In this document: in pieces, positions 42,625 to 62,565 of the stretch
How positions within the stretch are numbered: position 1 is the first letter of the stretch
Layout: each line of letters opens with the position of its first letter
NCBI GenBank assembly: GCA_965205265.1
Contig: CBDBGH010000003.1
Span: forward strand, 4,992,001-5,056,000
Length of the DNA: 64,000 bases
Reading direction: 5' to 3'
DNA from: Alphaproteobacteria bacterium
GTDB lineage: Bacteria > Pseudomonadota > Alphaproteobacteria > Bin95
Program-made: the position numbers and the translations under genes
The notes under the pieces: generated by a model
Database searches by the model: none
What the model saw: the letters and a program-made list of their open reading frames with translations, nothing else
Told to the model about the DNA's origin: nothing

Positions 42625-43479
42625 GTGACAGGCAACAACGATGCGGGAGCGGTGCTGCGGACCGCCGCCTGGAAAGGCGATATCCCCGGCCTGAAGCAAT
42701 TGCTCGCCGACGGTGCGGACCCGGACGCCGTCGCGGATGACGGATGTGCGGCCCTGCATCTGGCGGCGGAGGCAGGCCGTCCTGAATGCATGCGGGTTCT
42801 GCTCGAGGCCGGAGCCGACCCGAATGTCCAGGATGATTCGGGTCTTGCCCCGCTGCATGTGGCCTCGCTCACCGGACATGTCGGAGCGATCACCCTTCTG
42901 GTGAAGGCCGGGGCCGATCCGGAAATGCGGGATGAAGAGCGCGGCGAGACACCGCTTTGCTGGGCGGTTGCCGGCGTCAACGAAATGGAGGCGGTTCGCG
43001 GCATATGCACTCTGGTCGGCGCCGGTGCGGACCCGAATGCGCGGAACGGGCTGGGTTGGACGCCGATGCAGAGGTTGTGCGCAAACCCCGGTCACGGAGA
43101 GGTCCTGCGGTGTCTTCTGGCCGCGGGCAGCGATCCGGATGGGACCGATGAGGATGGTTTCACTGTCCTGCACCATTTGGCACTTGCGCTTCCATTCGAC
43201 TCCGAAAGGCTCTCGATACTGGTTTCGGGCGGCGCCGATGTGAATGCCCGTGACGGGAAGGGGCGGACACCGCTGTATCTGGCGGCGGAGCGCGGACAGG
43301 TCGAATGGGTGCAGGCTCTTCTGGGAGTCGGCGCCGACCCGTCCATTCCGGGCAAGGCAGGCGTGCCGGTGGATGCGGTCATGCAGCGCCCGGCCGAAGG
43401 CGACACGGAACGGCGCGAGACGATTCTGGAGATGTTGCGCGAGGCGGTCGGGCACGCGGCGCCCGAACCGGGACCGTAG
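42625..43479 (+). CDS. Ankyrin-repeat protein
   Basis: ANK units. Confidence 0.95.
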   Translation: MTGNNDAGAVLRTAAWKGDIPGLKQLLADGADPDAVADDGCAALHLAAEAGRPECMRVLLEAGADPNVQDDSGLAPLHVASLTGHVGAITLLVKAGADPEMRDEERGETPLCWAVAGVNEMEAVRGICTLVGAGADPNARNGLGWTPMQRLCANPGHGEVLRCLLAAGSDPDGTDEDGFTVLHHLALALPFDSERLSILVSGGADVNARDGKGRTPLYLAAERGQVEWVQALLGVGADPSIPGKAGVPVDAVMQRPAEGDTERRETILEMLREAVGHAAPEPGP

Positions 43480-43483
43480 CGGA

Positions 43484-44422
43484 ATGATGGAGCGGAACTC
43501 TCTGCAGGACCGGTTGGAAGCGGCAGTGCAGGATGGCGATGTTGCGGCGGTGAGGACGCTGCTGGAATCGGGTGCGGACCCGAATGCCGGTAACGAAGAG
43601 GGCGCGACCGCCGTTCATGCGGCGGCCAGGGGCTCGAGTCCGGACTGCCTGCGCGTGCTTCTTGAAGCCGGAGGCAGTCCGGACGGCAGGACCGGTGAGG
43701 GGTGTTCATCATGGCTGGAGGCGCCGCTTGTTTCAGCGGCTTTCAAGGGACGGGCGGATATGGCGCTGGCGCTTGTCGAAGCCGGGGCGGACGTGAATGT
43801 GAAGGCCGGCAACCGGGAAACGCCGCTGCACTGGAGCGTGCAGGATGCCGAAGGCGTCCTGACGCGGCGTCTTCTCGAAGCCGGTGCGGATCCGAACGCC
43901 CGGAACCTCATGGGCGAAACCCCGCTCCACGCGGCCGCATGGGTGGGGAATGCCGACGGCATCCGGATACTCGTCGAGGCGGGCGCCACGGTGGATGCGG
44001 AGGACGATGAAGGCATGTCGCCGCTGGCCTGCGCCTCCATGGGCGCAAGCGGCTGCGTGCGGGCGCTGCTCGCGGCCGGGGCCGATGCGGGAGCGAAGGC
44101 CGGTCCGGGCCGGACAGCGCTGGTCCGGGCCTGCTGGCACGGGCTTGAGGACAATGTCCGCATGCTGCTCGAGGCCGGGGCCGACCCGGACGGTGTGGGC
44201 GACAGCGCTGAATCTCCGCTTCATGCTGCGGCCTGGGACGGCAACCCGGCCATTGTGGGGATGTTGCTTCAGGCCGGTGCAGACCCGGGGGTCACGGCCT
44301 CGGGCAGGGCCGGAACGCCCGGGGAGTGGGCGCGGGCCAGGGACAATGGCGAGGCCGCCGCTCTTCTCGGGGAAGCTCTCGGAAGCGACAGGGAGCAGGG
44401 CCGATGCGGGCCGGAAGCGTAG
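43484..44422 (+). CDS. Ankyrin-repeat protein
   Basis: ANK units. Confidence 0.95.
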   Translation: MMERNSLQDRLEAAVQDGDVAAVRTLLESGADPNAGNEEGATAVHAAARGSSPDCLRVLLEAGGSPDGRTGEGCSSWLEAPLVSAAFKGRADMALALVEAGADVNVKAGNRETPLHWSVQDAEGVLTRRLLEAGADPNARNLMGETPLHAAAWVGNADGIRILVEAGATVDAEDDEGMSPLACASMGASGCVRALLAAGADAGAKAGPGRTALVRACWHGLEDNVRMLLEAGADPDGVGDSAESPLHAAAWDGNPAIVGMLLQAGADPGVTASGRAGTPGEWARARDNGEAAALLGEALGSDREQGRCGPEA

Positions 44423-45878: not shown

Positions 45879-46802
45879 ATGGTCGATTTCCGGGATATGC
45901 GGGGGAACGAAATACGCCGGTTCCTGGCGGATGGCGGCAGGATCGATGCCAGGGACGACATATTCGGCGAGACGCTCCTGCATGTCGCCGTTCGGCTGGA
46001 CGATGAGGGCCTTGTCAGGGAACTGCTCGCCGCCGGGGCCGATCCCAATGAAGGAGACGGGAAGGGGAGGACACCGCTCTTTGCGGCGGCCCACATCGGG
46101 GACGCGTCCGTGGTGAAGGCCCTGCTGGAAGGCGGGGCCCGGCCGGACGAGCGCGATGTGGAATATACGACCGCGCTGCATCTGGCGGCGCAGGGAGGCA
46201 GTGTCGCCAACATCGGGCTTCTGCTCGCCGCCGGCGCCGATCCGGAAGCGCGGGACGAGTTGGGCGCAACGCCATTGCATCTGGGGGCCCTGAACGGTCG
46301 GCTCGACAGCGTGCAGGCGCTTCTCGGGGGAGGGGCCGATGCGAGCGCACGCACGAGGGCCGGCGGCGAAACGGCGCTTCACTGGGCGATGACGGTCGAG
46401 GGAGGCCGGGGTGAGGAGATTGTTGCCGCTCTTCTTGGGGCGGGAGCGGATCCGAATACGCGGAACGGGATGGAAGAGACGCCGCTTCACTGGGCGGCGT
46501 CGGGCCTCGAGGAAGGCGGAAGGATCGCGGCGCTTCTGGAAGCCGGGGCCGACCCCGGCGCGCGCAACAAGTGGGAGGCGACTCCCCTGCATGAGGCCGC
46601 CCAGGCGCGCAAGGCGGACGCCGTGCGGATCCTCCTCGCCGCGGGCGCCGATCCCGATGCCACGGACGACGAGGGTAAGACGCCCATGGAGTGGGCGATG
46701 CCGGTCGTGGGCGACAATTCGGAAGTGATGGGCCTGCTGGAGAAAGCGGCGGCAGACCGCAGAGCCGCCGCCGGACTTCCGGAGCCCGTGTCGGGTGGCT
46801 GA
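45879..46802 (+). CDS. Ankyrin-repeat protein
   Basis: ANK units. Confidence 0.95.
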   Translation: MVDFRDMRGNEIRRFLADGGRIDARDDIFGETLLHVAVRLDDEGLVRELLAAGADPNEGDGKGRTPLFAAAHIGDASVVKALLEGGARPDERDVEYTTALHLAAQGGSVANIGLLLAAGADPEARDELGATPLHLGALNGRLDSVQALLGGGADASARTRAGGETALHWAMTVEGGRGEEIVAALLGAGADPNTRNGMEETPLHWAASGLEEGGRIAALLEAGADPGARNKWEATPLHEAAQARKADAVRILLAAGADPDATDDEGKTPMEWAMPVVGDNSEVMGLLEKAAADRRAAAGLPEPVSGG

Positions 46803-47986: not shown

Positions 47987-49192
47987 ATGGGCCGCCGGAC
48001 GGTTCAGGTCGATTATGGCGAGACCGTCAGGATGATGGAGCCGATGGTCCTGTCCCCGGGCGACGACGGGATGGACAGGCTTGTCCACCTGGTGGTGGAT
48101 ATGGACCGCGGGAACGGGGACCTGCAGCGGCTTCTTCCGGAGGCGCTGAAGCGGCCGCTGATCGCCCTGCTGCGGGTTGTCGATGCCCATTTCGGCGACG
48201 CGATGGGGATGCTGCATCCCCTGCATCCGGAGGACATCGAAGGAGGCCTCCAGGGAAGGTTCCTGAACTGCGCACGGGACAGGGCCCGGCAGTGTGAGGC
48301 GGTCGCCCATGTGCGGGCCGCGGAATGGCTCGACCGGGAGACGGCAAACTATCACCCCGCCGGCGAATACGTCCTCGGCACACTTCACCGGTTGCTCGGT
48401 GAGGAAGGGTTCCCGGAAAACCGGCCTGCATTCGACCCGGGCCGCTACCGGAGGGACACTGTGTCCGTGGGAGCGCACGATCCCGTGGGCCCGGAGGACG
48501 TGCCGCGCTGCATGCGCCGCTTCGAGGACACCTATACGGTCCTGTCACCGTCGGATACGATGATGAATGCGGCGGCGATGCATCACCGCCTGCTGTGGAT
48601 CCATCCGTTCCGGGACGGGAACGGGCGAGCCGCCCGTCTGGTGACACGGCAGTTCCTGTCCGGCGCCATGGGGTCGCTCTACTGGTCGCTGGCACGGGGA
48701 TTGGCCCTGGAGAAGCCGGCCTATTTTTCCTTCCTGAAGGTCTGCGACCGCGGGCGGTTCGACAGCAGGGACGGGCCGGGCCCTCTGAGCCGGGGAGCCC
48801 TGGTGGCGTTCACGGAGTGGTTCCTGACGGCCTGCATCGGCCAGATCGGCTTCATGACCGAGTGCTGCACGCCATCGGTTCTGCAGGACCGGATCCGGCG
48901 GTGGGCGGCGGAGGAAGAGGCGGCAGGGCGTCTTCCCGAGGAAAGCGGAACGGTGCTGGTCGCCGCGATGGATGAAGGTTGCCTGACGCGGGGCCGGGTA
49001 GGGGAGATCGCGGGCCGCGGCATCCATCACGGTCGTCTGATCGTCAAGATGCTGCAGGCGCGCGGGCTGCTGGCAACGAGGCACGGTCCGCGCTCGCCGC
49101 TGCATCCGGCGCTGCCGGTTTCGGCGGCTCGGGCCTGGTTTCCGGGCCTCTTCCCGGCATTGCAACAGGCGGAGGAAGGAAAAGCCGCATGA
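47987..49192 (+). CDS. Fic-family protein with C-terminal wHTH
   Basis: HPFRDGNGRAAR. TTGACA at 47924 lies inside the inverted repeat GGATTG...CAATCC. Confidence 0.9.
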   Translation: MGRRTVQVDYGETVRMMEPMVLSPGDDGMDRLVHLVVDMDRGNGDLQRLLPEALKRPLIALLRVVDAHFGDAMGMLHPLHPEDIEGGLQGRFLNCARDRARQCEAVAHVRAAEWLDRETANYHPAGEYVLGTLHRLLGEEGFPENRPAFDPGRYRRDTVSVGAHDPVGPEDVPRCMRRFEDTYTVLSPSDTMMNAAAMHHRLLWIHPFRDGNGRAARLVTRQFLSGAMGSLYWSLARGLALEKPAYFSFLKVCDRGRFDSRDGPGPLSRGALVAFTEWFLTACIGQIGFMTECCTPSVLQDRIRRWAAEEEAAGRLPEESGTVLVAAMDEGCLTRGRVGEIAGRGIHHGRLIVKMLQARGLLATRHGPRSPLHPALPVSAARAWFPGLFPALQQAEEGKAA

Positions 49193-53980: not shown

Positions 53981-56173
53981 TCAGCCGTTGCCCCGCGCCT
54001 CGAAGAGTCCGCCTCCGTGGTGGGACGTGCGGCCGAGCATGACAGGCCCGGCCTGGGCGGCCCGGAAGGTGAGCCGGACCCACGCGTCGATGCCGCCCCG
54101 CTCTCCCGTGACGATGGAGGTTCCGAGAATGTCGATCTTCTCGGCCGCGGGCAGCCGGGCCCGATGCATCTCGGTCCTGATGTCCTTCTCGACAAGGGCC
54201 GGAACCGGCCGGTTCCTTTCGATGAACCGGGTGACCCGATAGGGGGTAATCGTCTCCCATACGCGGCTCGGGACAAACAGCGGGTCGCTGTCGGCCCGGA
54301 CGGGGACCGGCTCGGTGCCCAGGACCCCTTCGGCGCCGGCGACGATCTCCCTCATGCCGGACACGGCCTGTTCCACGAGCCTGTGGCCCTCACCGATCTC
54401 GTCGGGGAAGTTGCCATCGGCATTGCGGTGACCGGGCGCCAGCCACAGGATGCGGCGGCGCGCGAGATCCGTGCAGATGAACACATGCCGGTGCCTGCCG
54501 TCGCGCGAGCGGATCGGGCCGCTCGAGTTGACCGGATGACCCGACACATAGGGTGGAAGCCGACGCCGGCGGCCGATCAGGTCCTGCGCGCGGGCCATCA
54601 TGGCCCGCCGCGCGGCCTGCGTGACGGCCATCGGGTCCGCATCCCGCCCGATATCGGAAACGATCTGCAGTGCCGTGATGCCGGAGGTCTGCTCCTCGGG
54701 GCGCATCAGCCCCAGCCCGAGAAACCGGCCGTCGCCGACAAGGACGGGACCGGAAACGGGTTTCGAGAACTCGATTTCGGCATGCCAGAGCCGGGACTGC
54801 GAGAACCGGGTTCCCGGTGAGAAGGAGCGCGAATGAAGCCCCTCGTTGTCGGGGGAGGTGCGCCGCACGGCAACGGACAGGGCCGGGATGGTGATGCCGG
54901 CATAGCGGAGCGCCTTCCGCACGGCCTGCACCGCATGCTGTTCGCCGCGCCTCACATCGGTGCCCGAGACGGCGCCGCGCTTCTCGCGCGGCCGCTCCGG
55001 CACCGCGATCGGGGTGACGGTGCGCCAATAGCGCGACCTGCCCTCGTACCGCTCGACCATGCGGCGGCTGCCGCCCGGGTGGAGTTCCGCCCGGACCGAG
55101 CCGTCTTCACGGGTCCACGCAATCTGGGAGAAAGCCCAGGAGACCTCGTCGCCGGGAATCGGGCAGGAGCGCGGCACATAGACGGCCACACGCCGGATCA
55201 TCATGTCGGAGTCCAGGTGGCCTATCGAGGGGAGGGGAACGATGCGCACCCTGGACAGGGCGTCGTCGCGCTGGACGCCGCGGCCGATCAGGAAACGCTC
55301 GACCGTGTCGGCGAGGTCGGGAGAGTTCTCCCGGATCAGCCCGGCGGCCCGGTCGCGGATATCCTCGACGAATGCCACCGCACGGTCGAGCGTGGTTGCC
55401 GAGTAACCGCGTCCCTCGCCGTCCAGGACGTCGAACAACAGGCGCTCGTCGGGCGTATTGTAGCGCACGGGTGCAAGCGCGGGCTTGGCGGGCTGCTCGA
55501 AGACAGCGACGTCGTTCCGGCCCAGGCGCTCGCGCGAAAAACGCGACAGGTTCTGCCTGTGACGCCTGCGCAGACTTTCGAGGGAGCCGGGTTTGGGGCA
55601 CAGCAGCGATGGCCCGGCGCGGCCCCGGTCGGAAGGGGTATAGACGACGATCCCGGGCTGCTGGAACAGGAGGTCGCGTTCCTCGGTGTCAATGATCTTC
55701 CCGGAACCCCAGGCCTGATCGAAACCCCGTCCGAGCTGGTAGATCGCCCTGGCCGCGTCGCAGACCTCCCGGGCGTAGCCGGTCCGGTCCCCGTTATTCC
55801 CGATATCCCAGCAATAGTGGATGGGGATGGCCTCATCGAAGATCCGGTATTGCTGCGGTTTCGGCACCTTGATCGAGGCAAGCGCCTCGTTGAGGTCCAC
55901 CGACGGCCCTCCCGGGATGGCGGAGTCCATGTCGTTGTTCGGGACATAGGGCGTGACGCCTTCATGCCGGGTCGCCGGCGGGGCGCCGATGACAGGCGGT
56001 GCGAGGCCCTCGAGCCAGCCGAGAGCCTCGAGCAGGCCGGGGCGGACGGTGCCGCCCTCGGCCGACCCGGCAATCAGCGCCTGGAACACACGGCCGGGCG
56101 CCGGAGGCCAGTCGCCCGTGCCATGGTAGCGTCCTTCGCCGAACCGGACGCTCAGGAGGAGGGACCGGCTCAT
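53981..56173 (-). CDS. csb2: Type I-G CRISPR Csb2 (Cas5/Cas6 fusion)
   Basis: GRYHG..DWPPAPGRVFQAL, YVPNND, GPVLVGDGRFLGLGL, GPVMLG..SHHGGGLF. Confidence 0.92.
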   Translation of the reverse strand: MSRSLLLSVRFGEGRYHGTGDWPPAPGRVFQALIAGSAEGGTVRPGLLEALGWLEGLAPPVIGAPPATRHEGVTPYVPNNDMDSAIPGGPSVDLNEALASIKVPKPQQYRIFDEAIPIHYCWDIGNNGDRTGYAREVCDAARAIYQLGRGFDQAWGSGKIIDTEERDLLFQQPGIVVYTPSDRGRAGPSLLCPKPGSLESLRRRHRQNLSRFSRERLGRNDVAVFEQPAKPALAPVRYNTPDERLLFDVLDGEGRGYSATTLDRAVAFVEDIRDRAAGLIRENSPDLADTVERFLIGRGVQRDDALSRVRIVPLPSIGHLDSDMMIRRVAVYVPRSCPIPGDEVSWAFSQIAWTREDGSVRAELHPGGSRRMVERYEGRSRYWRTVTPIAVPERPREKRGAVSGTDVRRGEQHAVQAVRKALRYAGITIPALSVAVRRTSPDNEGLHSRSFSPGTRFSQSRLWHAEIEFSKPVSGPVLVGDGRFLGLGLMRPEEQTSGITALQIVSDIGRDADPMAVTQAARRAMMARAQDLIGRRRRLPPYVSGHPVNSSGPIRSRDGRHRHVFICTDLARRRILWLAPGHRNADGNFPDEIGEGHRLVEQAVSGMREIVAGAEGVLGTEPVPVRADSDPLFVPSRVWETITPYRVTRFIERNRPVPALVEKDIRTEMHRARLPAAEKIDILGTSIVTGERGGIDAWVRLTFRAAQAGPVMLGRTSHHGGGLFEARGNG

Positions 56174-56177
56174 CGGG

Positions 56178-57257
56178 TCAGGCCGCCTCGTCGGCGGGGA
56201 GGCCGATATCGCGGCGGGCCCTCGCGCGCTCGTAGGCAACCGACCGGCTCGGCCCGACGCCCCATTCGGCCGCCGCGGCGCGGGCGACTTCGACCGCATT
56301 CCCGGCATTGAGGTCGAGCGCCTCGCGCTGGCCGTTATGCATCACGACTTCCCATGACGCCGTCCTGTCCGGATCCAGCGTCAGCAGGCAGCCCTGCCGG
56401 AGGAACAGGTTCGATGGCGTGGTGGCCGCGACAACAGCGAGGCCGAGCAGGTAGCGGCGCATGGCTTCGCCCTTCTCGCCGCGCAGGCGGCGAAGGGCCA
56501 CCAGGTTGATCGTGGTGGAGCGGATGATCTCGCCATGCACGATGACGCCGCCAAGCTCCTCGCCGACGCTCGGCACCGTGGAATAGCCGCGCCCGGAGAG
56601 GTCGTTCTTGTGCCTGACGGCCTCCTCGTCCGTCACGATGCCTTCCTCGCGAGCGGAGATGGTCGGATTGTACACGGAGCTGCGCTCGATTTCGTGGGCA
56701 TCGGTTGCCCGGATCACCGACTGGATGATCCGCGGAATCTTGACGCCGCTCGCGCGGGAATCCCAGCAACCGAACAGGGCCGATGTCGGGGCCATCTTGA
56801 CGAGTGCCGTATAGTCGTCGGCATCCTTGATCGTCAGGAAGATGGTCTGGATTTCCCGGTCGAGTTCCGTGCCGCGAAGGGTGGCGTCGGCGAGCCGGTG
56901 CGCGAAGGTCAGGATCGAGGCCACGCGGTCATTGCCATGCGTGACATCGATCTGCGGCACGAGATCCGCCAGAGGGTTCTCCTCGCCGTGCCGGCGCATG
57001 AAGACGGGTTCCATCTGGTTGGCCTGGCTCGCCACGCTGTCGATCGTCACGATCGTGCTGCCGTCGCCGAGCGTGTCGATGTTGTACCTCGACCTTTTCC
57101 CCGTCGGGTCCTTTTCGGACCGTGGATAGGACGGGGGGAAAATCACGGAGTGGTGGCCTTCGACCGGCATCAGCGCCTGCTGCAGCGTCAGCGCAACCGG
57201 GCCGTCGCGGTCGTTCGCGCAGAGCGTCGCGAACGCGGTATCGAATTCCGTTGTCAT
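56178..57257 (-). CDS. csb1: Type I-G CRISPR Csb1 (Cas7)
   Basis: IFPPSY, IDSVASQANQME, HRLADA, PTSALFGCWDS, LRQGCLL. Confidence 0.92.
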   Translation of the reverse strand: MTTEFDTAFATLCANDRDGPVALTLQQALMPVEGHHSVIFPPSYPRSEKDPTGKRSRYNIDTLGDGSTIVTIDSVASQANQMEPVFMRRHGEENPLADLVPQIDVTHGNDRVASILTFAHRLADATLRGTELDREIQTIFLTIKDADDYTALVKMAPTSALFGCWDSRASGVKIPRIIQSVIRATDAHEIERSSVYNPTISAREEGIVTDEEAVRHKNDLSGRGYSTVPSVGEELGGVIVHGEIIRSTTINLVALRRLRGEKGEAMRRYLLGLAVVAATTPSNLFLRQGCLLTLDPDRTASWEVVMHNGQREALDLNAGNAVEVARAAAAEWGVGPSRSVAYERARARRDIGLPADEAA

Positions 57258-58141
57258 TGAGTCCTCTCTTCGGTTACCTGGTTGATGGACCTCGCCCGGT
57301 TCGGGCCCTGAGGTTCGCCGCATACGACGCGGAACAGGCGGAATGCCTGTCCCGGGACGACCGGTTTGCGCATGCCCAGGGCGGCGCGCAGGAATATCGG
57401 GTCGTGCAGCTGCCCGTTCTCGATTCCAGCGACGCCGTAACTGAACAGCAGCCGCGTGATATGGGCGGGCCGGGCATGCGTCAGGCCGATGGCTGCCAGC
57501 ACCTCCACGAGGGGGTAGCCTCGCGTGGTCATGGCCTTGCCATGGGCATTCAACGAGAAACCGATCTCGACCGGGATATAGTCCGACCGCCAGTCGAAAC
57601 GCATCCGGCGGCCGCCCACCCGAATGGACGACATCGAGAAAGGGTCTTCCGCATGGTCGAGAATGCCCTCGTCCCGGGCCGCCTCGAGACAGTGCTGGAC
57701 GATGAGGGCGCCGGGCGCCCCGCCCATCCCCGTCCAGAACTTCGCTGTCTCGCGTCGGGCCTCGTCGCCCCAATGGTCGATGACGATCCGCTGGGCGCCG
57801 TCGTCGAGCAGCGCAGGCAGCTTTGCCGGCGTATCGAGATGGGGCATCGGGAAGGCAATGCCCGGCGTAACCGAGGTCTCGACCTTCTCCGCCCAGCTGC
57901 CCAGCACGCAGGGAGAGCCGGGCGGCAGGAGCATCGAGACCCTTGCGTTGTCGAGAAACTCCAGCACCCTGCGGACCGGGTCCACCTCTCCGGGCGTCTC
58001 GATTTCGAACCGGCCTTCGGCTTCGCACCAGGAGAAGCCGCCCATGGCTTCGCCCGCAAGACTGTTGGCGGCCTCGAGAAATCCCAGGCAGGCAAAGACC
58101 TGGCCGGGATTCAGCAGGTCGACCGGAATCGACTGTCTCAT
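57254..58141 (-). CDS. cas8: Type I-G short Cas8 (GSU0052/Csb3-type)
   Basis: VDLLNPGQVFACLGFLE, FDWR, IGFS, PLVEVLAAIGL..ARP. Sits between cas3 and csb1. Confidence 0.85.
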   Translation of the reverse strand: MRQSIPVDLLNPGQVFACLGFLEAANSLAGEAMGGFSWCEAEGRFEIETPGEVDPVRRVLEFLDNARVSMLLPPGSPCVLGSWAEKVETSVTPGIAFPMPHLDTPAKLPALLDDGAQRIVIDHWGDEARRETAKFWTGMGGAPGALIVQHCLEAARDEGILDHAEDPFSMSSIRVGGRRMRFDWRSDYIPVEIGFSLNAHGKAMTTRGYPLVEVLAAIGLTHARPAHITRLLFSYGVAGIENGQLHDPIFLRAALGMRKPVVPGQAFRLFRVVCGEPQGPNRARSINQVTEERTQ

Positions 58142-60894
58142 CGGTAGGCCTCCTCGATGGCCGCCTGGAACTGCGCGCGCGAGGCGCGGTAGTTCGCCGA
58201 GCGCAACAGGGATTCCCACCACGCCAGTCCCCATGGTCCCCAGATGCGTTGTTGCCGCGCATAACGCTGTGCGATCGCCAGGCCTTCGGTGGCGGCGTGC
58301 CGGGGCGGGAGGTCATCGGCGCCCTTGATGCCTATGACCGGACGGGCCTGGCCGTGATGCGACGCGATCAGGTGCAGCGCCAGCTCGAAGCGCGGGTCGT
58401 CCCGGGCAAGATCGAGGCCGTTCCTCGCCGCCAGAACTGTCGAGACGAACTCGTGGCGGTAGCGCGACAGCATGCTTCGTTTCAGGCGTTTGGCGGACTT
58501 GGCGTAGGGGTTTGCCGCCCAGTCCGAAGGCACGCCATAGGCGCGCTGCCACCGCCGCACGGCCTTGCCGTCGTCGTGGTGACGCGCCGCGGTGACCAGC
58601 ATGGCCCTGTCGGCCGCCTGTAAATCCAGGGCATCGGCGATATGGGCGGCTTGACCGCATACCTCGCGCACATGATCCTGGAGCGTTTCCGCCTTCAGCG
58701 AGGTGGCCCGGTGCCGTTCGCCGGACTCCGCTCCGTCGCGCGCCTGCACGGACAACCAGCGCAGGGGCATCTCGTCTTCGTCCAGACGCCACACGAACGC
58801 ATCGATTTCCTGCCATACGACGCCGTCCTCGACGATGGCGCCGCGGTCGGCTCCTGTGGAGACGCGGATCCGGTAGGGCGAGGCCGGAAGGTCTCCGGAG
58901 GCCTCGTTCCCTAGGCCCCAATTGTCTTCGGGGGTCGAAACGGCGGTGTCCGCCTTGATATCCAGGTGGCCGGCGGCGAGCCCGCCAAGACGGGCATCGA
59001 CGACGAGACGCCGTCCCCATAGCCGCCGGCTGAAATTGTCCTGCGCGGCCCGTGAGGCCCGCGACAGGTTAATCAGGTCCCGGTGGACGAGCATTTCCCG
59101 AAAGCTGCCGCTCTGGCTGAGCACCACGGCGACCGGTGCGTCGGGGCGCTTGAGCGGATAAAGGTCGTCATGGACCGGTTCGGGTTCGGCGGTTGCGCCC
59201 GCGACTGCCGCCACCCTGGACAGCAGCCAGGCCAGCACGTCGGCGCTGTCGGCCCAAAGGGTTTCGGCCTGCAGTGATCGGGCGGCCTCGAAAAAGGTCT
59301 CGACATGGTAGCCGTAGGGTGGGGAAAAACGCCGTCCGCGGTCCGTGTCCTGCATGATGACCGGCAGATAGTGGCGCCAGAGCACGGATGTGCGCGGCGC
59401 GCGTTCCTGCCAGCCATGCAGCCAGGGCCCTATGCGAGGCCGGCCGGTATGGGAGAAAAGGGATGTCATGGACCAGGAATCGACTGTCGCCCGTTCCAGG
59501 TCCGGGTAGAGCGGCACGGACGGGGCGGCGGCCCGGACGGACCGGCGAAGGTCCTGACACCGGTAGATGGCCGACAGGGCTTCGGGTCCGGCCTTCACCA
59601 TATCCGCTCCGGCCGGCGGGAGGCCGGAGAGCAGGGAGCGCACGGCGGTGATCGCGGGGTCCACCCGTTTTTCGTCCGCGGTCCTGTCGATGACGGCAAT
59701 GCGCGCCGTGCGGTCGCCGCTGCGCCCGACCCGGCCGAACCGGCGCACCATGCGCGGCCAGTCGCCCACAAGGTCGCAGACCATGGCGTCGGCGTCGAGA
59801 TCGCTGGCGATTTCCCCGGCCAGGGTGGAAATCAGGAAGCGCGGAGCGTCCATGTCGCGGGGGCGGCCATCGCCTGTAAAGCCGCTCTCTGCAAGCCACT
59901 CCGAAAGTTCGCGGCGCTCGCGGGTGCGCTGGCCCTCGAGCAGGAGGGCGGAATGTCGGCCCGCCGGCTTTTTCCCGAGATACCGGTTGATGCCGGCCAG
60001 GATGCGCAGGGCATCCTCACGCGCATCGACGAAGATCAGGATGCGCCGTTCCCCGTCCTCCGCATACGCCCGCGCCCGGTCCACGACTTCGGAAGCGAAG
60101 GCGGCGCCCCGCGCCGGACAGCCATGGACCGACAACTCCTTGTCGGCTGCCAGGCGCTTGGCGATAACCGGATGGGACAGGTCCTCGGCTTCCAGGGTGA
60201 AGAGGCCGGTAGTGGCGCGGTTCACCTGGCCCGAGCTCGCCATGGCCATGACGCGCAGCCCCGGCAGGAGATGCCTGTTGGCCGAATCCGGGGCGCCGAA
60301 CTCATGGGCGCCACGCTCGATTCGGCGCAGCAGGCTCTCGAAAGACGGCATGAGGTCGCGGTCATCGAGCACGATCAGACAGTCACAGGCGAGATTGGCG
60401 GCGGCCAGGGACCGCACGGAGCGATGAAGCCCGTATCCGCTGAAGAGCAGGGCCGAGCCGATCATGTCGACGGAACCGACTATGACCGACGGCAGGTGGG
60501 GATGATAGAGCCAGTCCGAGGAATCGACCCAGGCGCCGCGGAGCGTCGCGATGGGCAGATGTCCGTCCTCGTCCAGACCGAGGCCCTTCCGCAGGGCTTC
60601 CGAGCCCTGGACGGCGGCATGGGCCGCCTCTGCAAGTGCTGTCGCCCGGTCGATGACCGCGGCGCTGTGCACGACATAGGCAAGGCGGCGCGGCACGGGA
60701 GCCCCGGCGGCTCGCGCGGCGAGCCAGACGGCCATCACGGAAGCGCGTCCGCTTCCCGCCGGAATATCCACGACGGGCGGAACGGCACCGCCCATGAAAC
60801 CGTCATGAAGACGTTCGTGCCAGGGAAGGGGCGGGTGCCCGGTTACAGCCTCGAACAGTGCGCTCAATGATGGATTTCCGGCTTTCTGCTGCAC
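58138..60894 (-). CDS. cas3: Type I-G Cas3 (C-terminal HD) with degenerate catalytic motifs
   Basis: I-G architecture (TGHPPLPW, PRRLAYVV, VDMIGS, HDDGK, YRHE, HHG). GTG start at 60894 with AGAGGA RBS. Confidence 0.9.
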   Translation of the reverse strand: MQQKAGNPSLSALFEAVTGHPPLPWHERLHDGFMGGAVPPVVDIPAGSGRASVMAVWLAARAAGAPVPRRLAYVVHSAAVIDRATALAEAAHAAVQGSEALRKGLGLDEDGHLPIATLRGAWVDSSDWLYHPHLPSVIVGSVDMIGSALLFSGYGLHRSVRSLAAANLACDCLIVLDDRDLMPSFESLLRRIERGAHEFGAPDSANRHLLPGLRVMAMASSGQVNRATTGLFTLEAEDLSHPVIAKRLAADKELSVHGCPARGAAFASEVVDRARAYAEDGERRILIFVDAREDALRILAGINRYLGKKPAGRHSALLLEGQRTRERRELSEWLAESGFTGDGRPRDMDAPRFLISTLAGEIASDLDADAMVCDLVGDWPRMVRRFGRVGRSGDRTARIAVIDRTADEKRVDPAITAVRSLLSGLPPAGADMVKAGPEALSAIYRCQDLRRSVRAAAPSVPLYPDLERATVDSWSMTSLFSHTGRPRIGPWLHGWQERAPRTSVLWRHYLPVIMQDTDRGRRFSPPYGYHVETFFEAARSLQAETLWADSADVLAWLLSRVAAVAGATAEPEPVHDDLYPLKRPDAPVAVVLSQSGSFREMLVHRDLINLSRASRAAQDNFSRRLWGRRLVVDARLGGLAAGHLDIKADTAVSTPEDNWGLGNEASGDLPASPYRIRVSTGADRGAIVEDGVVWQEIDAFVWRLDEDEMPLRWLSVQARDGAESGERHRATSLKAETLQDHVREVCGQAAHIADALDLQAADRAMLVTAARHHDDGKAVRRWQRAYGVPSDWAANPYAKSAKRLKRSMLSRYRHEFVSTVLAARNGLDLARDDPRFELALHLIASHHGQARPVIGIKGADDLPPRHAATEGLAIAQRYARQQRIWGPWGLAWWESLLRSANYRASRAQFQAAIEEAYR

Positions 60895-60967
60895 CTGTCG
60901 TCCTCTGTCTCGGTGTTGGACCAGAACGTCCCTTGCGACGCTAAAACGCTTGTCACCCTCATAAATC

Positions 60968-60996
60968 ATAATACGAATATAATTCGTCCCTGTCAA
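60968..60996 (-). promoter_or_regulatory. Sigma70 promoter of the cas operon
   Basis: TTGACA-17 nt-TATTAT, with internal palindrome ACGAAT-ata-ATTCGT at 60973-60987. Confidence 0.85.
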
Positions 60997-61065
60997 CCCG
61001 CCGGCCGTGTGGTGCGATTTGTTGTTTTTTGTCATGGTGTGCTAGGATGCATCCGCGCTGGAAAG

Positions 61066-61178
61066 CCTTCAGGTCATGACGGCGCCGGGCGATATTGAAG
61101 GGCATTGTGATTCATGAGCCGGTCTGCTGATCGGCGATGGTTTCACAACCGGAGCGGATGCTCCGGTCTCATTGATGT
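61066..61178 (+). CRISPR. One-spacer CRISPR-like mini-array (degenerate repeat, spacer, repeat)
   Basis: Repeat 2 (61143-61178) TCACAACCGGAGCGGATGCTCCGGTCTCATTGATGT has the I-G hairpin plus CTCATTGA. Repeat 1 keeps the handle ATTGAAGG (61094-61101). Spacer 61102-61142. Confidence 0.75.
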
Positions 61179-61180
61179 GT

Positions 61181-61210
61181 CGGCCCGGGAGAATGCGGGC
61201 TCCCGGGCCG
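61181..61210 (+). terminator. Hairpin closing the mini-array transcript
   Basis: 11-bp stem CGGCCCGGGAG / CTCCCGGGCCG with a weak T-tract after it. Confidence 0.55.
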
Positions 61211-61411
61211 CGGTTGTTCTGTGTGATAGCCGCTCCGGATTTCGTGGGGAACCCGGTCCCGATATTGTGGAATAGCCGTTTCAGAAACTGCAGTGCCTTG
61301 TGTTTCAGCTGACACCGGAATTCGCATGGCGGATTTCCGGGCCGGAGTCGACGCCAATTCCCGCTCGGTAGTGGAGACGAGGGTCGTCCCGTGTTATGAG
61401 AAGATGTGCCC

Positions 61412-61534
61412 GTGACCTTCCACACCGATGTGCTCCGCGAGCCGCGGAAGCGGCTGTGGGAGATGCTGGGCGGCACGCCGCCGGGCTTCGTCCTTTACGG
61501 AGGCACGGCCCCGGCATTGAGGCGGCTGGGGTAA
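61412..61534 (+). pseudogene. N-terminal remnant of an AbiEii-type toxin
   Basis: VTFHTDVLREPRKRLWEMLGGTPPGFVLYGGTAPALRRLG* contains the FVLYGGTA signature. Confidence 0.7.
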
Positions 61535-61539
61535 TCAGG

Positions 61540-62565
61540 ATGCGCGACAAACCGATTGGCGCGATCTGGCGGCCGGTGCGGGATCTGGCTCCTGAGCATC
61601 GCGGCTTTTCGCATGAGCCCGCCCGGCAGGCGGCTCGCCGCTGGCAGGAGAGCAGGAAGAAGCTCGAGGACCCGGAGATCGACCGGTCCTCCATGGATGT
61701 GTGGCTCCGGTCGCAGAGACGGGCCTTTGCCATCGAGACCGGCCAGATCGAGGGCCTTTATCTGTTGCGCCGGGGCGTGACCGAGACCCTGATAGCCGAA
61801 GGCTTCGACAACGTCCGGGGGGCCCATTCGGCAGGCGACATTGACGATGACACCATCAAGGGGCTGCTACAGGATCAGGAGACAGCCCTTGAGATGATGT
61901 TCGCGCATGTCAGGGAAGAGCGCCCGCTGACGACGTCGGCGATCAAGGAGTGGCACGCGCTCCTGACGCGGCACCAGGACACGGCAACGGGCATCGACCC
62001 GTTCGGGAAGAAAATCGAGATACCGCTGCGCCGGGGCCAGTGGAAAATACGGTCGAACAATCCCCGCCGGCATGACGGGATCATCCACGAATACTGTCCG
62101 CCGGAGCAGGTGGAAACGGAGATGGAGCGTTTCCTGAAATTCCACGAGGAACACGCTGGCCTGAACCTTGCGCCGGAGACGGAAGCTGCCTGGCTACACC
62201 ACGAATTCGTGCGCATCCACCCGTTTCAGGACGGCAATGGCCGTATATCGCGGCTGCTGATGGCTTACGCCTATGCCAGGGCAGGTGAGTTCCCGCCCGT
62301 CATTCCGGCGGAAAGGAAGGATGACTATATCGATGCCCTCGATGCCGCGGATGAAGGAAACTTCCCGGCGCTGGTCGAGTATCTGGGCGATCTGGCGGCA
62401 GGCCGCTCAAGGGCGGCGGCGCTTCGGGCAGAAGGCATCGTGGCCGGGCGTACGCAGTACCGTCACGGCAATGGCGGCATCACCTCGAAGGGCACTTACC
62501 GTTCACTTGAGGCCCTGGGCAGTGACTGGGAACCGCCGTCGCCGTCGCCGTTCGACGATGATTGA
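61540..62565 (+). CDS. Fic-family protein
   Basis: AIETGQIEG, HPFQDGNGRISR. Confidence 0.9.
   Translation: MRDKPIGAIWRPVRDLAPEHRGFSHEPARQAARRWQESRKKLEDPEIDRSSMDVWLRSQRRAFAIETGQIEGLYLLRRGVTETLIAEGFDNVRGAHSAGDIDDDTIKGLLQDQETALEMMFAHVREERPLTTSAIKEWHALLTRHQDTATGIDPFGKKIEIPLRRGQWKIRSNNPRRHDGIIHEYCPPEQVETEMERFLKFHEEHAGLNLAPETEAAWLHHEFVRIHPFQDGNGRISRLLMAYAYARAGEFPPVIPAERKDDYIDALDAADEGNFPALVEYLGDLAAGRSRAAALRAEGIVAGRTQYRHGNGGITSKGTYRSLEALGSDWEPPSPSPFDDD

Follow-up and report, generated by a model that had tools for sequence, protein, structure and literature searches.

Repression of cas promoters by CreR RNAs has been shown experimentally in CRISPR (clustered and regularly interspaced short palindromic repeats) subtypes I-B, I-E and V-A, and in the accompanying model this autorepression is relieved by competing CRISPR RNAs (crRNAs), according to the accessible text of Liu et al. 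(bioRxiv 10.1101/2023.03.10.532045). The present analysis concerns a mini-array, two repeat-like sequences around a single 42-nucleotide (nt) spacer, which lies upstream of a type I-G cas operon in an alphaproteobacterial genome of 5.7 Mb and 68% GC. The stretch analysed, hereafter the window, comprises 64,000 nt (positions 4992001-5056000 of contig CBDBGH010000003.1), and its mini-array is taken, with a probability of roughly two in three, to be a CreR-type crRNA-like autorepressor of the operon headed by cas3g.

CreR, as far as the available parts of that preprint describe it, is a degenerate mini-CRISPR, found within the cas operon or next to it, that keeps a 5' handle in PsiR1 and a 3' handle or hairpin in PsiR2, and the same layout is present in the window. 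In both, the pseudo-spacer partially pairs with a cas promoter beside a canonical protospacer-adjacent motif (PAM), the Salmonella I-E example pairing over 15 consecutive nt. The window differs in its subtype (I-G, Cas8g2 type) and in the promoter addressed, which is that of cas3g, the first gene and one encoding an integral effector subunit, whereas CreR addresses cas8/casA. It differs further in a pairing that is mismatched at positions 2, 6 and 12 and ends at position 17, in the degenerate helicase motifs of its Cas3g and in the lack of linked adaptation genes.

The regulatory mini-arrays and crRNA-like RNAs of subtypes I-E, I-F1, I-D and I-B (Shmakov et al., bioRxiv 10.1101/2023.03.03.530964, accessible text) likewise place two repeat-like sequences around a spacer whose complementarity to a cas promoter is partial and is accompanied by a canonical PAM, do not expect every sixth position to pair, and act as repressors, not as restriction guides; the targets named there are the cas8, cas10d and cas6 promoters, whereas that of the window is a cas3 promoter. 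A further parallel, summarised there, is the autorepression of cas9 by tracr-L in type II-A, in which guide and promoter form a duplex of just 11 bp, so that the effector represses its own promoter and does not cut it, but in a class 2 system with a single protein, another RNA and another PAM logic.

The accessible sections of Shangguan et al. describe an 8-nt handle, 5+1 periodicity and a TTN PAM for subtype I-G, and Cas3 as an integral effector subunit required for stable target binding. In the literature covered, subtypes I-G and I-U are tied to promoter-targeting elements solely by one sentence of Liu et al. on creA-like elements for I-U, which points to Figure S7, taken here from its legend. 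Neither subtype is mentioned in the accessible text of Shmakov et al. or of a preprint on phage crRNA-like RNAs (crlRNAs).

The mini-array and its target in the cas3g promoter

A promoter scan of positions 60500-61600 (window coordinates, as throughout) returned a single sigma-70-like site, which lies on the minus strand, reads TTGACA-17-TATTAT and scores 11/12 matches, shuffled sequences giving a mean of 0.3 sites. The -35 hexamer TTGACA of this cas3g promoter occupies 60991-60996 and the -10 hexamer TATTAT 60968-60973, the latter forming positions 2-7 of a 17-nt protospacer on the cas3g sense strand (GTATTATGATTTATGAG, 60958-60974, minus strand). A 5'-TTC PAM (60975-60977, minus strand) stands directly 5' of the protospacer, the minus strand from 60977 to 60958 reading TTC and then GTATTATGATTTATGAG. 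The target site covers the -10 hexamer and the likely transcription start, and is separated from the cas3g start codon by 64 nt.

The head of the mini-array spacer (GCATTGTGATTCATGAG, 61102-61118, plus strand) is identical to positions 60974-60958 at 14 of 17 nt, with mismatches at positions 2, 6 and 12, and at 14 of 15 when the flipped positions 6 and 12 are not counted; positions 18-20 are mismatched at all three. In the cas3g promoter, the template strand can pair with the first 17 nt of the guide, beside 5'-TTC, over three 6-nt segments. The original prediction, a reading of the letters alone, had proposed this match, its mismatches, its stop at position 18, the TTC PAM and the overlap with the -10 hexamer. 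Re-reading of the sequence returned its coordinates and letters for spacer, PAM and target exactly, and the promoter scan agrees with it on the placement of the -10 hexamer. Target and spacer 17-mers also form an inverted repeat, about 127-128 nt apart, within intergenic DNA that is AT-rich while the genome is GC-rich.

The mini-array (61054-61178) is divergent from cas3g and 160 nt upstream of it. Its form can be compared with that of an 11-repeat CRISPR array located 3.5 kb past the window end and 6.3 kb from the mini-array (L001:7490-8261, contig positions 5059490-5060261), whose leading repeat reads CTCTC-CCCGGCG-TGAT-CGCCGGG-TTCCC-ATTGAAGT. PsiR1 (61054-61101, plus strand) consists of an irregular hairpin and an 8-nt handle (ATTGAAGG, 61094-61101) that corresponds to the ATTGAAGT/C of the array, the 5' handle being conserved. 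It is followed by the 42-nt PsiS (61102-61143, plus strand) and by PsiR2 (61144-61178, plus strand), in which the hairpin CCGGAGC-GGAT-GCTCCGG (61149-61166, 7-8 bp, 4-nt loop) precedes TCTC and ATTGATGT. This hairpin with TCTCATTG mirrors the CCCGGCG-TGAT-CGCCGGG with TTCCCATTG of the array, having the same shape on different stem letters, and retains the CTCATTG motif of local and clade repeats. An intrinsic-terminator-like hairpin with a T-rich tail comes next (61181-61220, hairpin 61181-61210 with 11 pairs, plus strand), and a candidate promoter with an extended -10, TTGTTG-18-TGcTAGGAT, was read by eye ahead of PsiR1 (61019-61048, plus strand). The 171-nt stretch folds better than 200 of 200 shuffles (z = -3.3), and Rfam returned sub-threshold matches only, PsiR2 resembling CRISPR-DR16 at 18.4 bits, under the gathering score. 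The mini-array form suggested originally is real, with a PsiR2 hairpin like that of the local repeats and a terminator-like hairpin after it.

Two further structures were observed in the same region. A 7-bp hairpin with a 4-nt loop inside PsiS (GCCGGTC-TGCT-GATCGGC, 61118-61135, plus strand) has the dimensions of the repeat hairpins and begins exactly where promoter complementarity stops; it may represent what is left of a third repeat, or serve as a structural stop. The predicted transcript start (61049-61061) forms a 13-nt inverted repeat, 85% complementary, with the 5' arm and loop of PsiR2 (61149-61161), making an alternative pairing in the transcript possible.

The match of the spacer head to the promoter stands out against the genome. 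Both strands of the 5.7-Mb genome hold three sites of at least 13/15, namely the spacer itself, the target (14/15, TTC) and one site of 13/15 with a CCG flank, the target being the best non-self match. When the 17-mer was shuffled 300 times, the genome held on average 0.083 sites of at least 14/15, and TTN-flanked sites arose in 0/300. As an internal control, the 11 spacers of the nearby array gave no TTN-flanked genome match of at least 13/15. A second target of PsiS, near an adjacent Fic gene, was considered and rejected, the match having an AGT flank and reaching 10/15, the score most frequent in the controls.

By analogy with published CreR work, the proposed gene would be a degenerate mini-CRISPR of the order PsiR1-PsiS-PsiR2-terminator, transcribed divergently from cas3g. 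Its RNA would be cut to an 8-nt AUUGAAGG handle, the 42-nt pseudo-spacer and a 3' hairpin held by Csb2, and would be loaded into the I-G effector of Cas7g, Cas8g2, Csb2 and Cas3g. The bound effector would block RNA polymerase, the operon thereby repressing itself, and repression would relax with a shortage of the effector, its titration by other crRNAs or its inhibition. The short pairing would allow binding without licensing DNA degradation, which is unlikely at this locus anyway because the Cas3g helicase motifs are degenerate. The need for an integral Cas3 in stable target binding fits guides aimed at the promoter of cas3g, not cas8. The candidate mini-array promoter lies ~40 bp beyond the target, so an effector bound there should leave the promoter of the guide itself unsilenced. 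The original idea that the circuit acts as a sensor is the published CreR model, as outlined in the accessible text, and adds no new inference.

Recurrence across type I-G loci

The census started from 160 I-G loci, 137 of which remained after duplicates and short flanks were dropped; the window is not among them. Each 17-mer following an ATTG[AG][AG]NN handle within 1.2 kb upstream of cas3g was a candidate (221 in total, 138 from the genome set and 83 from the metagenome set), and was scored by its best match within 1.3 kb upstream of the same cas3g, ignoring positions 6 and 12. TTN-flanked matches of at least 12/15 were found in 17 of the 137 loci (8/138 candidates in the genome set, 9/83 in the metagenome set), against none when spacers were tried on other loci (0/690 and 0/415 respectively, 0/1105 in total) and 5/1580 at random positions (genome set only). 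When the PAM filter was removed, 14 matches reached at least 13/15, and TTN flanked 13 of them, the TT background being 4.6%. The spacers are unrelated across loci, with the single exception of the pair L031 and L098.

With the window included (n = 18), mismatches at positions 1-17 number 0, 2, 1, 2, 0, 13, 0, 4, 2, 0, 1, 14, 2, 2, 4, 3 and 5, the low counts outside positions 6 and 12 being partly built into the selection. Position 6 is mismatched in 13 of the 18 loci, position 12 in 14, and positions 18-30 in 12-18 loci each, and this near-random behaviour is real, since none of these positions was used in selection. The protospacer lies on the cas3 sense strand in 16/18 loci, and the mini-array is divergent from cas3g in 12 and co-oriented in 6. 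A cas3-directed sigma-70-like site is overlapped by 8/18 targets, against a base rate of 3.2% (binomial p ~3e-8, loci taken as independent). A stable hairpin stands at the expected place of PsiR2 in 13/18 loci, and a CATTG-like motif follows it in 12 of these 13.

Individual loci resemble the window closely. L015, which is among its closest relatives by Cas8g, Cas7g and Csb2, has the same layout of a divergent mini-array and a TTC PAM, its target covering TTGACA-18-TATATT and its mismatches falling at positions 6, 12 and 14; L078, recorded from a cultured strain, has a perfect 17/17 match; and L086 shares the mismatch at position 2. In L019 and L020, a common small conserved element with a strong terminator-like hairpin end (CCCCAGCGCG...CGCGCTGGGG) was observed between mini-array and cas3g, ~100-340 nt upstream of the latter, and the partial target of the mini-array (TTA PAM) adjoins the mini-array, not cas3; the small element could be CreT-like cargo.

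Taken as sequence evidence, these patterns strongly support the core idea of a crRNA-like RNA that would guide the I-G Cascade to its own promoter with a TTN PAM and 5+1 pairing. What goes beyond the literature found is the pattern seen across the I-G family, with a TTN-flanked site at the cas3g promoter, free variation at positions 6 and 12 and pairing that stops at 17, together with a helicase-degenerate host, CreR itself being already known.

State of the effector and competing explanations

The operon lies on the minus strand and comprises cas3g (58138-60894; GTG start with GAGGA ahead of it; 918 amino acids (aa); TIGR02621 453 bits, cut-off 400), cas8g2 of the GSU0052 type (57254-58234; TIGR04106 172.7 bits, cut-off 125), cas7g/csb1 (56178-57251, start approximate; assigned by NCBIfam) and csb2, a cas5-cas6 fusion in its long form of ~730 aa (53981-56173; homologs align over residues 46-769 of a 775-aa open frame). 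All four exceed NCBIfam cut-offs, and this signature effector gene set makes the operon type I-G, Cas8g2/GSU0052 variant. The four open reading frames (ORFs) are full-length, without frameshift or stop across ~6.9 kb, and colinear with 139-160 homologous loci. No cas1, cas2 or cas4 is present in the window or the next 12 kb, so the adaptation module (cas4g/cas1g fusion, cas2) is not operon-linked; the five cas1 copies of the genome are all outside the locus, the nearest ~69 kb past the window end. The cas7g gene sits inside a longer 712-aa open frame (56178-58316, minus strand), which crosses cas8g2 in another frame before becoming cas7g; tblastn alignments run over the overlapped part in six loci, and this part is probably a GC-rich composition effect.

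The Cas3g of the window has all superfamily 2 (SF2) helicase motifs substituted at otherwise invariant residues (GKT to GRA, DEAH to DDRD), which is unique among 159-160 relatives. It reads PAGSGRAS where relatives have xxxLGKTx (159/159), DDRDL for DE[AS]HL (160/160), MASS for LSAT (152/160) and RRFGRVGR for QR[LF]GRxNR (160/160), and motifs Ia and V are altered too, with the three HD motifs intact. Judged from its sequence, the protein is without an intact SF2 helicase core, motifs I, Ia, II, III, V and VI appearing degenerate. Counting columns conserved in at least 95% of homologs, residues 1-460 keep 80/116, where the lowest of 159 homologs keeps 0.91, residues 461-918 keep 73/78, and Cas8g keeps 27/27. 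An identical protein of 487 aa (P0122) corresponds to residues 432-918 of this Cas3g, some annotation calling the C-terminal half alone.

The description of the system as dead in the original prediction therefore needs qualification. Every Cas3g helicase motif is degenerate and linked adaptation genes are absent, but the four ORFs are intact and above their cut-offs and the HD motifs are kept. The autorepressive design proposed with it, a guide to its own promoter, fares better, recurring in 17 other loci with unrelated spacers.

Several observations weigh against autorepression in the window. Cas7g and Csb2 keep 70/79 and 79/88 conserved columns (89-90%), and the His of the Csb2 VTRH motif, present in at least 95% of homologs, is Phe. 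The catalytic His of the studied I-G Csb2 enzyme is H503, to which the VTRH His is not mapped, there being no PDB relative of the long Csb2 and BLASTP placing the short-Csb2 C-terminal module on two regions. The effector may be impaired, Cas3g being needed for stable target binding in the studied I-G system, and that studied effector is of the Csx17/Cas8g1 type whereas the window locus is of the Cas8g2 type. Binding could be weaker for the seed mismatch at position 2, PsiR1 has no clean repeat hairpin, and the mini-array promoter, spotted by eye, is absent from the scan output. To the selection effect on mismatch counts described above is added the lack of material for direct covariation between orthologues: DNA of this region is absent from 60 relatives except for a partial match to the Fic-side flank in one of them (G012), and in species genomes, metagenomes and plasmids no Cas3g with accessible DNA exceeds 42% identity. 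As to the two regions of Csb2, the short-Csb2 matches fall on residues 423-539 and 672-770 of the 775-aa frame, and the long Csb2 of the clade appears to hold two copies of a C-terminal RAMP/Cas6-like module.

Whether the altered Cas3g is a stable form or a stage of decay bears on how the promoter match is read. Among 1.84 billion representative proteins, a single full-length relative exceeds 44% identity (P0002, 49-50%). It keeps GKT, has RRFGRVGR in common with the window, shows DSQEH and LSSS for motifs II and III, and has intact HD motifs, its motif VI being the same as that of the window and its motifs Ia, II, III and V degenerate. A motif regex flagged 18 further proteins, many of them short, as flags only. 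Because two full-length proteins ~50% identical share changes, the helicase-inactive form would have been maintained and not recently decayed; these two sequences suggest a maintained variant of Cas3g. The broader proposal that the locus is a maintained I-G derivative, in a small lineage with P0002, with the Cas3g motor off and HD, Cas8g2, Cas7g and Csb2 kept, and not dying immunity, is put forward tentatively and is itself rather unlikely.

Under the opposite account, a CreR worked in the ancestor and the locus is decaying, the match persisting because too little time has passed. Such a relic would explain the loss of conserved columns from the helicase half of Cas3g, the Phe of Csb2, the absence of cas1, cas2 and cas4, the heterogeneous repeats of the array and the mismatch at position 2. 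Decay has nevertheless left four full-length, colinear ORFs, the HD motifs, the C-terminal half of Cas3g and Cas8g, and the features shared with P0002 imply that the state persisted through long divergence. The stems of the array repeats differ, yet 11/11 keep a GC hairpin and ATTGAAGN, and the guide match still stands at 14/15. A decaying relic is accordingly judged improbable.

Self-derived spacers are known in general, and the mini-array could be the remnant end of an ordinary array, with a spacer acquired from adjoining DNA that regulates nothing and is harmless since a Cas3g with degenerate helicase motifs cannot degrade DNA. A fresh self-spacer would match over its full length, but pairing here stops at 17 of 42 nt with positions 6 and 12 mismatched, as in 17 other loci with canonical Cas3g motifs; the target is the -10 hexamer of the operon's own promoter and the element carries its own terminator. 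This origin is very unlikely.

The haloarchaeal I-B CreTA system, in which the CreA antitoxin RNA directs Cascade to the promoter of the toxin CreT by partial pairing, has the same RNA architecture as CreR (Shmakov et al.; Liu et al.; accessible text of both). A guard of this type, repressing a toxin gene instead of cas and addicting the host to Cascade, could be considered here, since a SoFic-like Fic-domain gene begins 185 nt past the terminator and L019 and L020 hold a small element between mini-array and cas3. The targeted promoter is followed by a leader of ~64 nt and then cas3g, however, leaving little room for a toxin gene, although a small toxic RNA is conceivable from the sequence, and the region upstream of the adjacent Fic gene is unmatched, the best other local match being the rejected one of 10/15 with an AGT flank; such a guard is highly improbable. 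Chance similarity, or a pair of inverted operators for a protein regulator as the inverted 17-mers 127 nt apart in AT-rich intergenic DNA might suggest, is scarcely credible given the genome-wide and shuffle statistics, a spacer that begins exactly where an 8-nt repeat handle ends and is followed by a repeat-like hairpin, and a TTC PAM and 6/12 pattern that recur, with TTN, in 17 other loci. CreR-type autorepression of the cas3g operon is the reading preferred over these.

Neighbouring arrays and meaning for subtype I-G

The 11 repeats of the nearby array are heterogeneous, their stem sequences differing around a GC hairpin and ATTGAAGN handle found in each, as though processing of the old guides were being preserved while no new ones are acquired; varied letters on a constant hairpin and handle point in the same direction as the maintained form of the locus. 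The array region has no match in plasmid or phage collections. A role of this array in guiding chromosomal regulation was dropped, none of its 11 spacers having a TTN-flanked genome match of at least 13/15 or a match in the plasmid and phage collections.

Elsewhere on the chromosome there is a second I-G system (L164, contig positions 3404001-3424000), which is complete and belongs to the Cas8g1/Csx17 type, with cas3g, csx17, cas7g, csb2, an IS630 transposase gene, an array and cas4g/cas1g. Its array has more than 30 repeats, ending ATTGAAGC, and no handle-like mini-array is present upstream of its cas3g. The handle of this system nearly equals that of the window system, making cross-talk of crRNAs conceivable. 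The CRISPR load of the chromosome is unusually rich, with arrays at ~3.25 and 4.05 Mb (32-nt repeat ending ATTGAAAC), 3.41 Mb (I-G), 3.79 and 5.45 Mb (one 36-nt repeat in opposite orientations), 5.06 Mb and 5.12 Mb.

The operon is flanked by two Fic-domain genes on the plus strand (47987-49192 and 61396-62565; best PADLOC match SoFic), and the surroundings include ankyrin-repeat genes (43244-44422 and 45879-46802), DUF3085, DUF6878, DUF3991, a D12 methyltransferase, an RNase T-like exonuclease and a Mu-type transposase, a neighbourhood that looks like a mobile-element or defence island.

Type IV-A interference acts by transcriptional repression, and type IV-A systems, like the I-F3 and I-B CRISPR-associated transposons (CASTs), are class 1 effectors of mobile elements that lack adaptation and processive degradation and act by binding their targets, not by destroying them. 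The window locus differs in keeping a full-length Cas3g with intact HD motifs and in having no operon-linked transposition genes, and its likeness to nuclease-less or helicase-less class 1 derivatives is a lead by analogy. A literature search for naturally inactive Cas3 returned nothing comparable. Should the maintained-derivative proposal hold, the locus would serve, in a mobile-element-like island and with no adaptation, as a module that binds or nicks DNA under RNA guidance, which would keep its old guides through compensatory repeat hairpins and set its own dose through a CreR loop, and it would represent a naturally occurring step from type I immunity towards systems that only bind, as type IV and CASTs do. 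As a rare natural full-length Cas3g with every helicase motif altered and HD intact, the protein bears on the passage from type I systems to binding-only devices.

The 18 loci would extend RNA-guided cas autorepression of the CreR kind to subtype I-G with family-wide sequence evidence. Their common pattern would be an evolutionary footprint of the 5+1 geometry of Cascade and of a length threshold separating binding from interference. As a separate proposal, likewise rather unlikely, the 17-nt limit (three Cas7 segments) would apply throughout subtype I-G as the length at which the effector binds but Cas3 is not licensed. If the loop works as published for CreR, it would be a point at which anti-CRISPRs or competing crRNAs alter cas expression.

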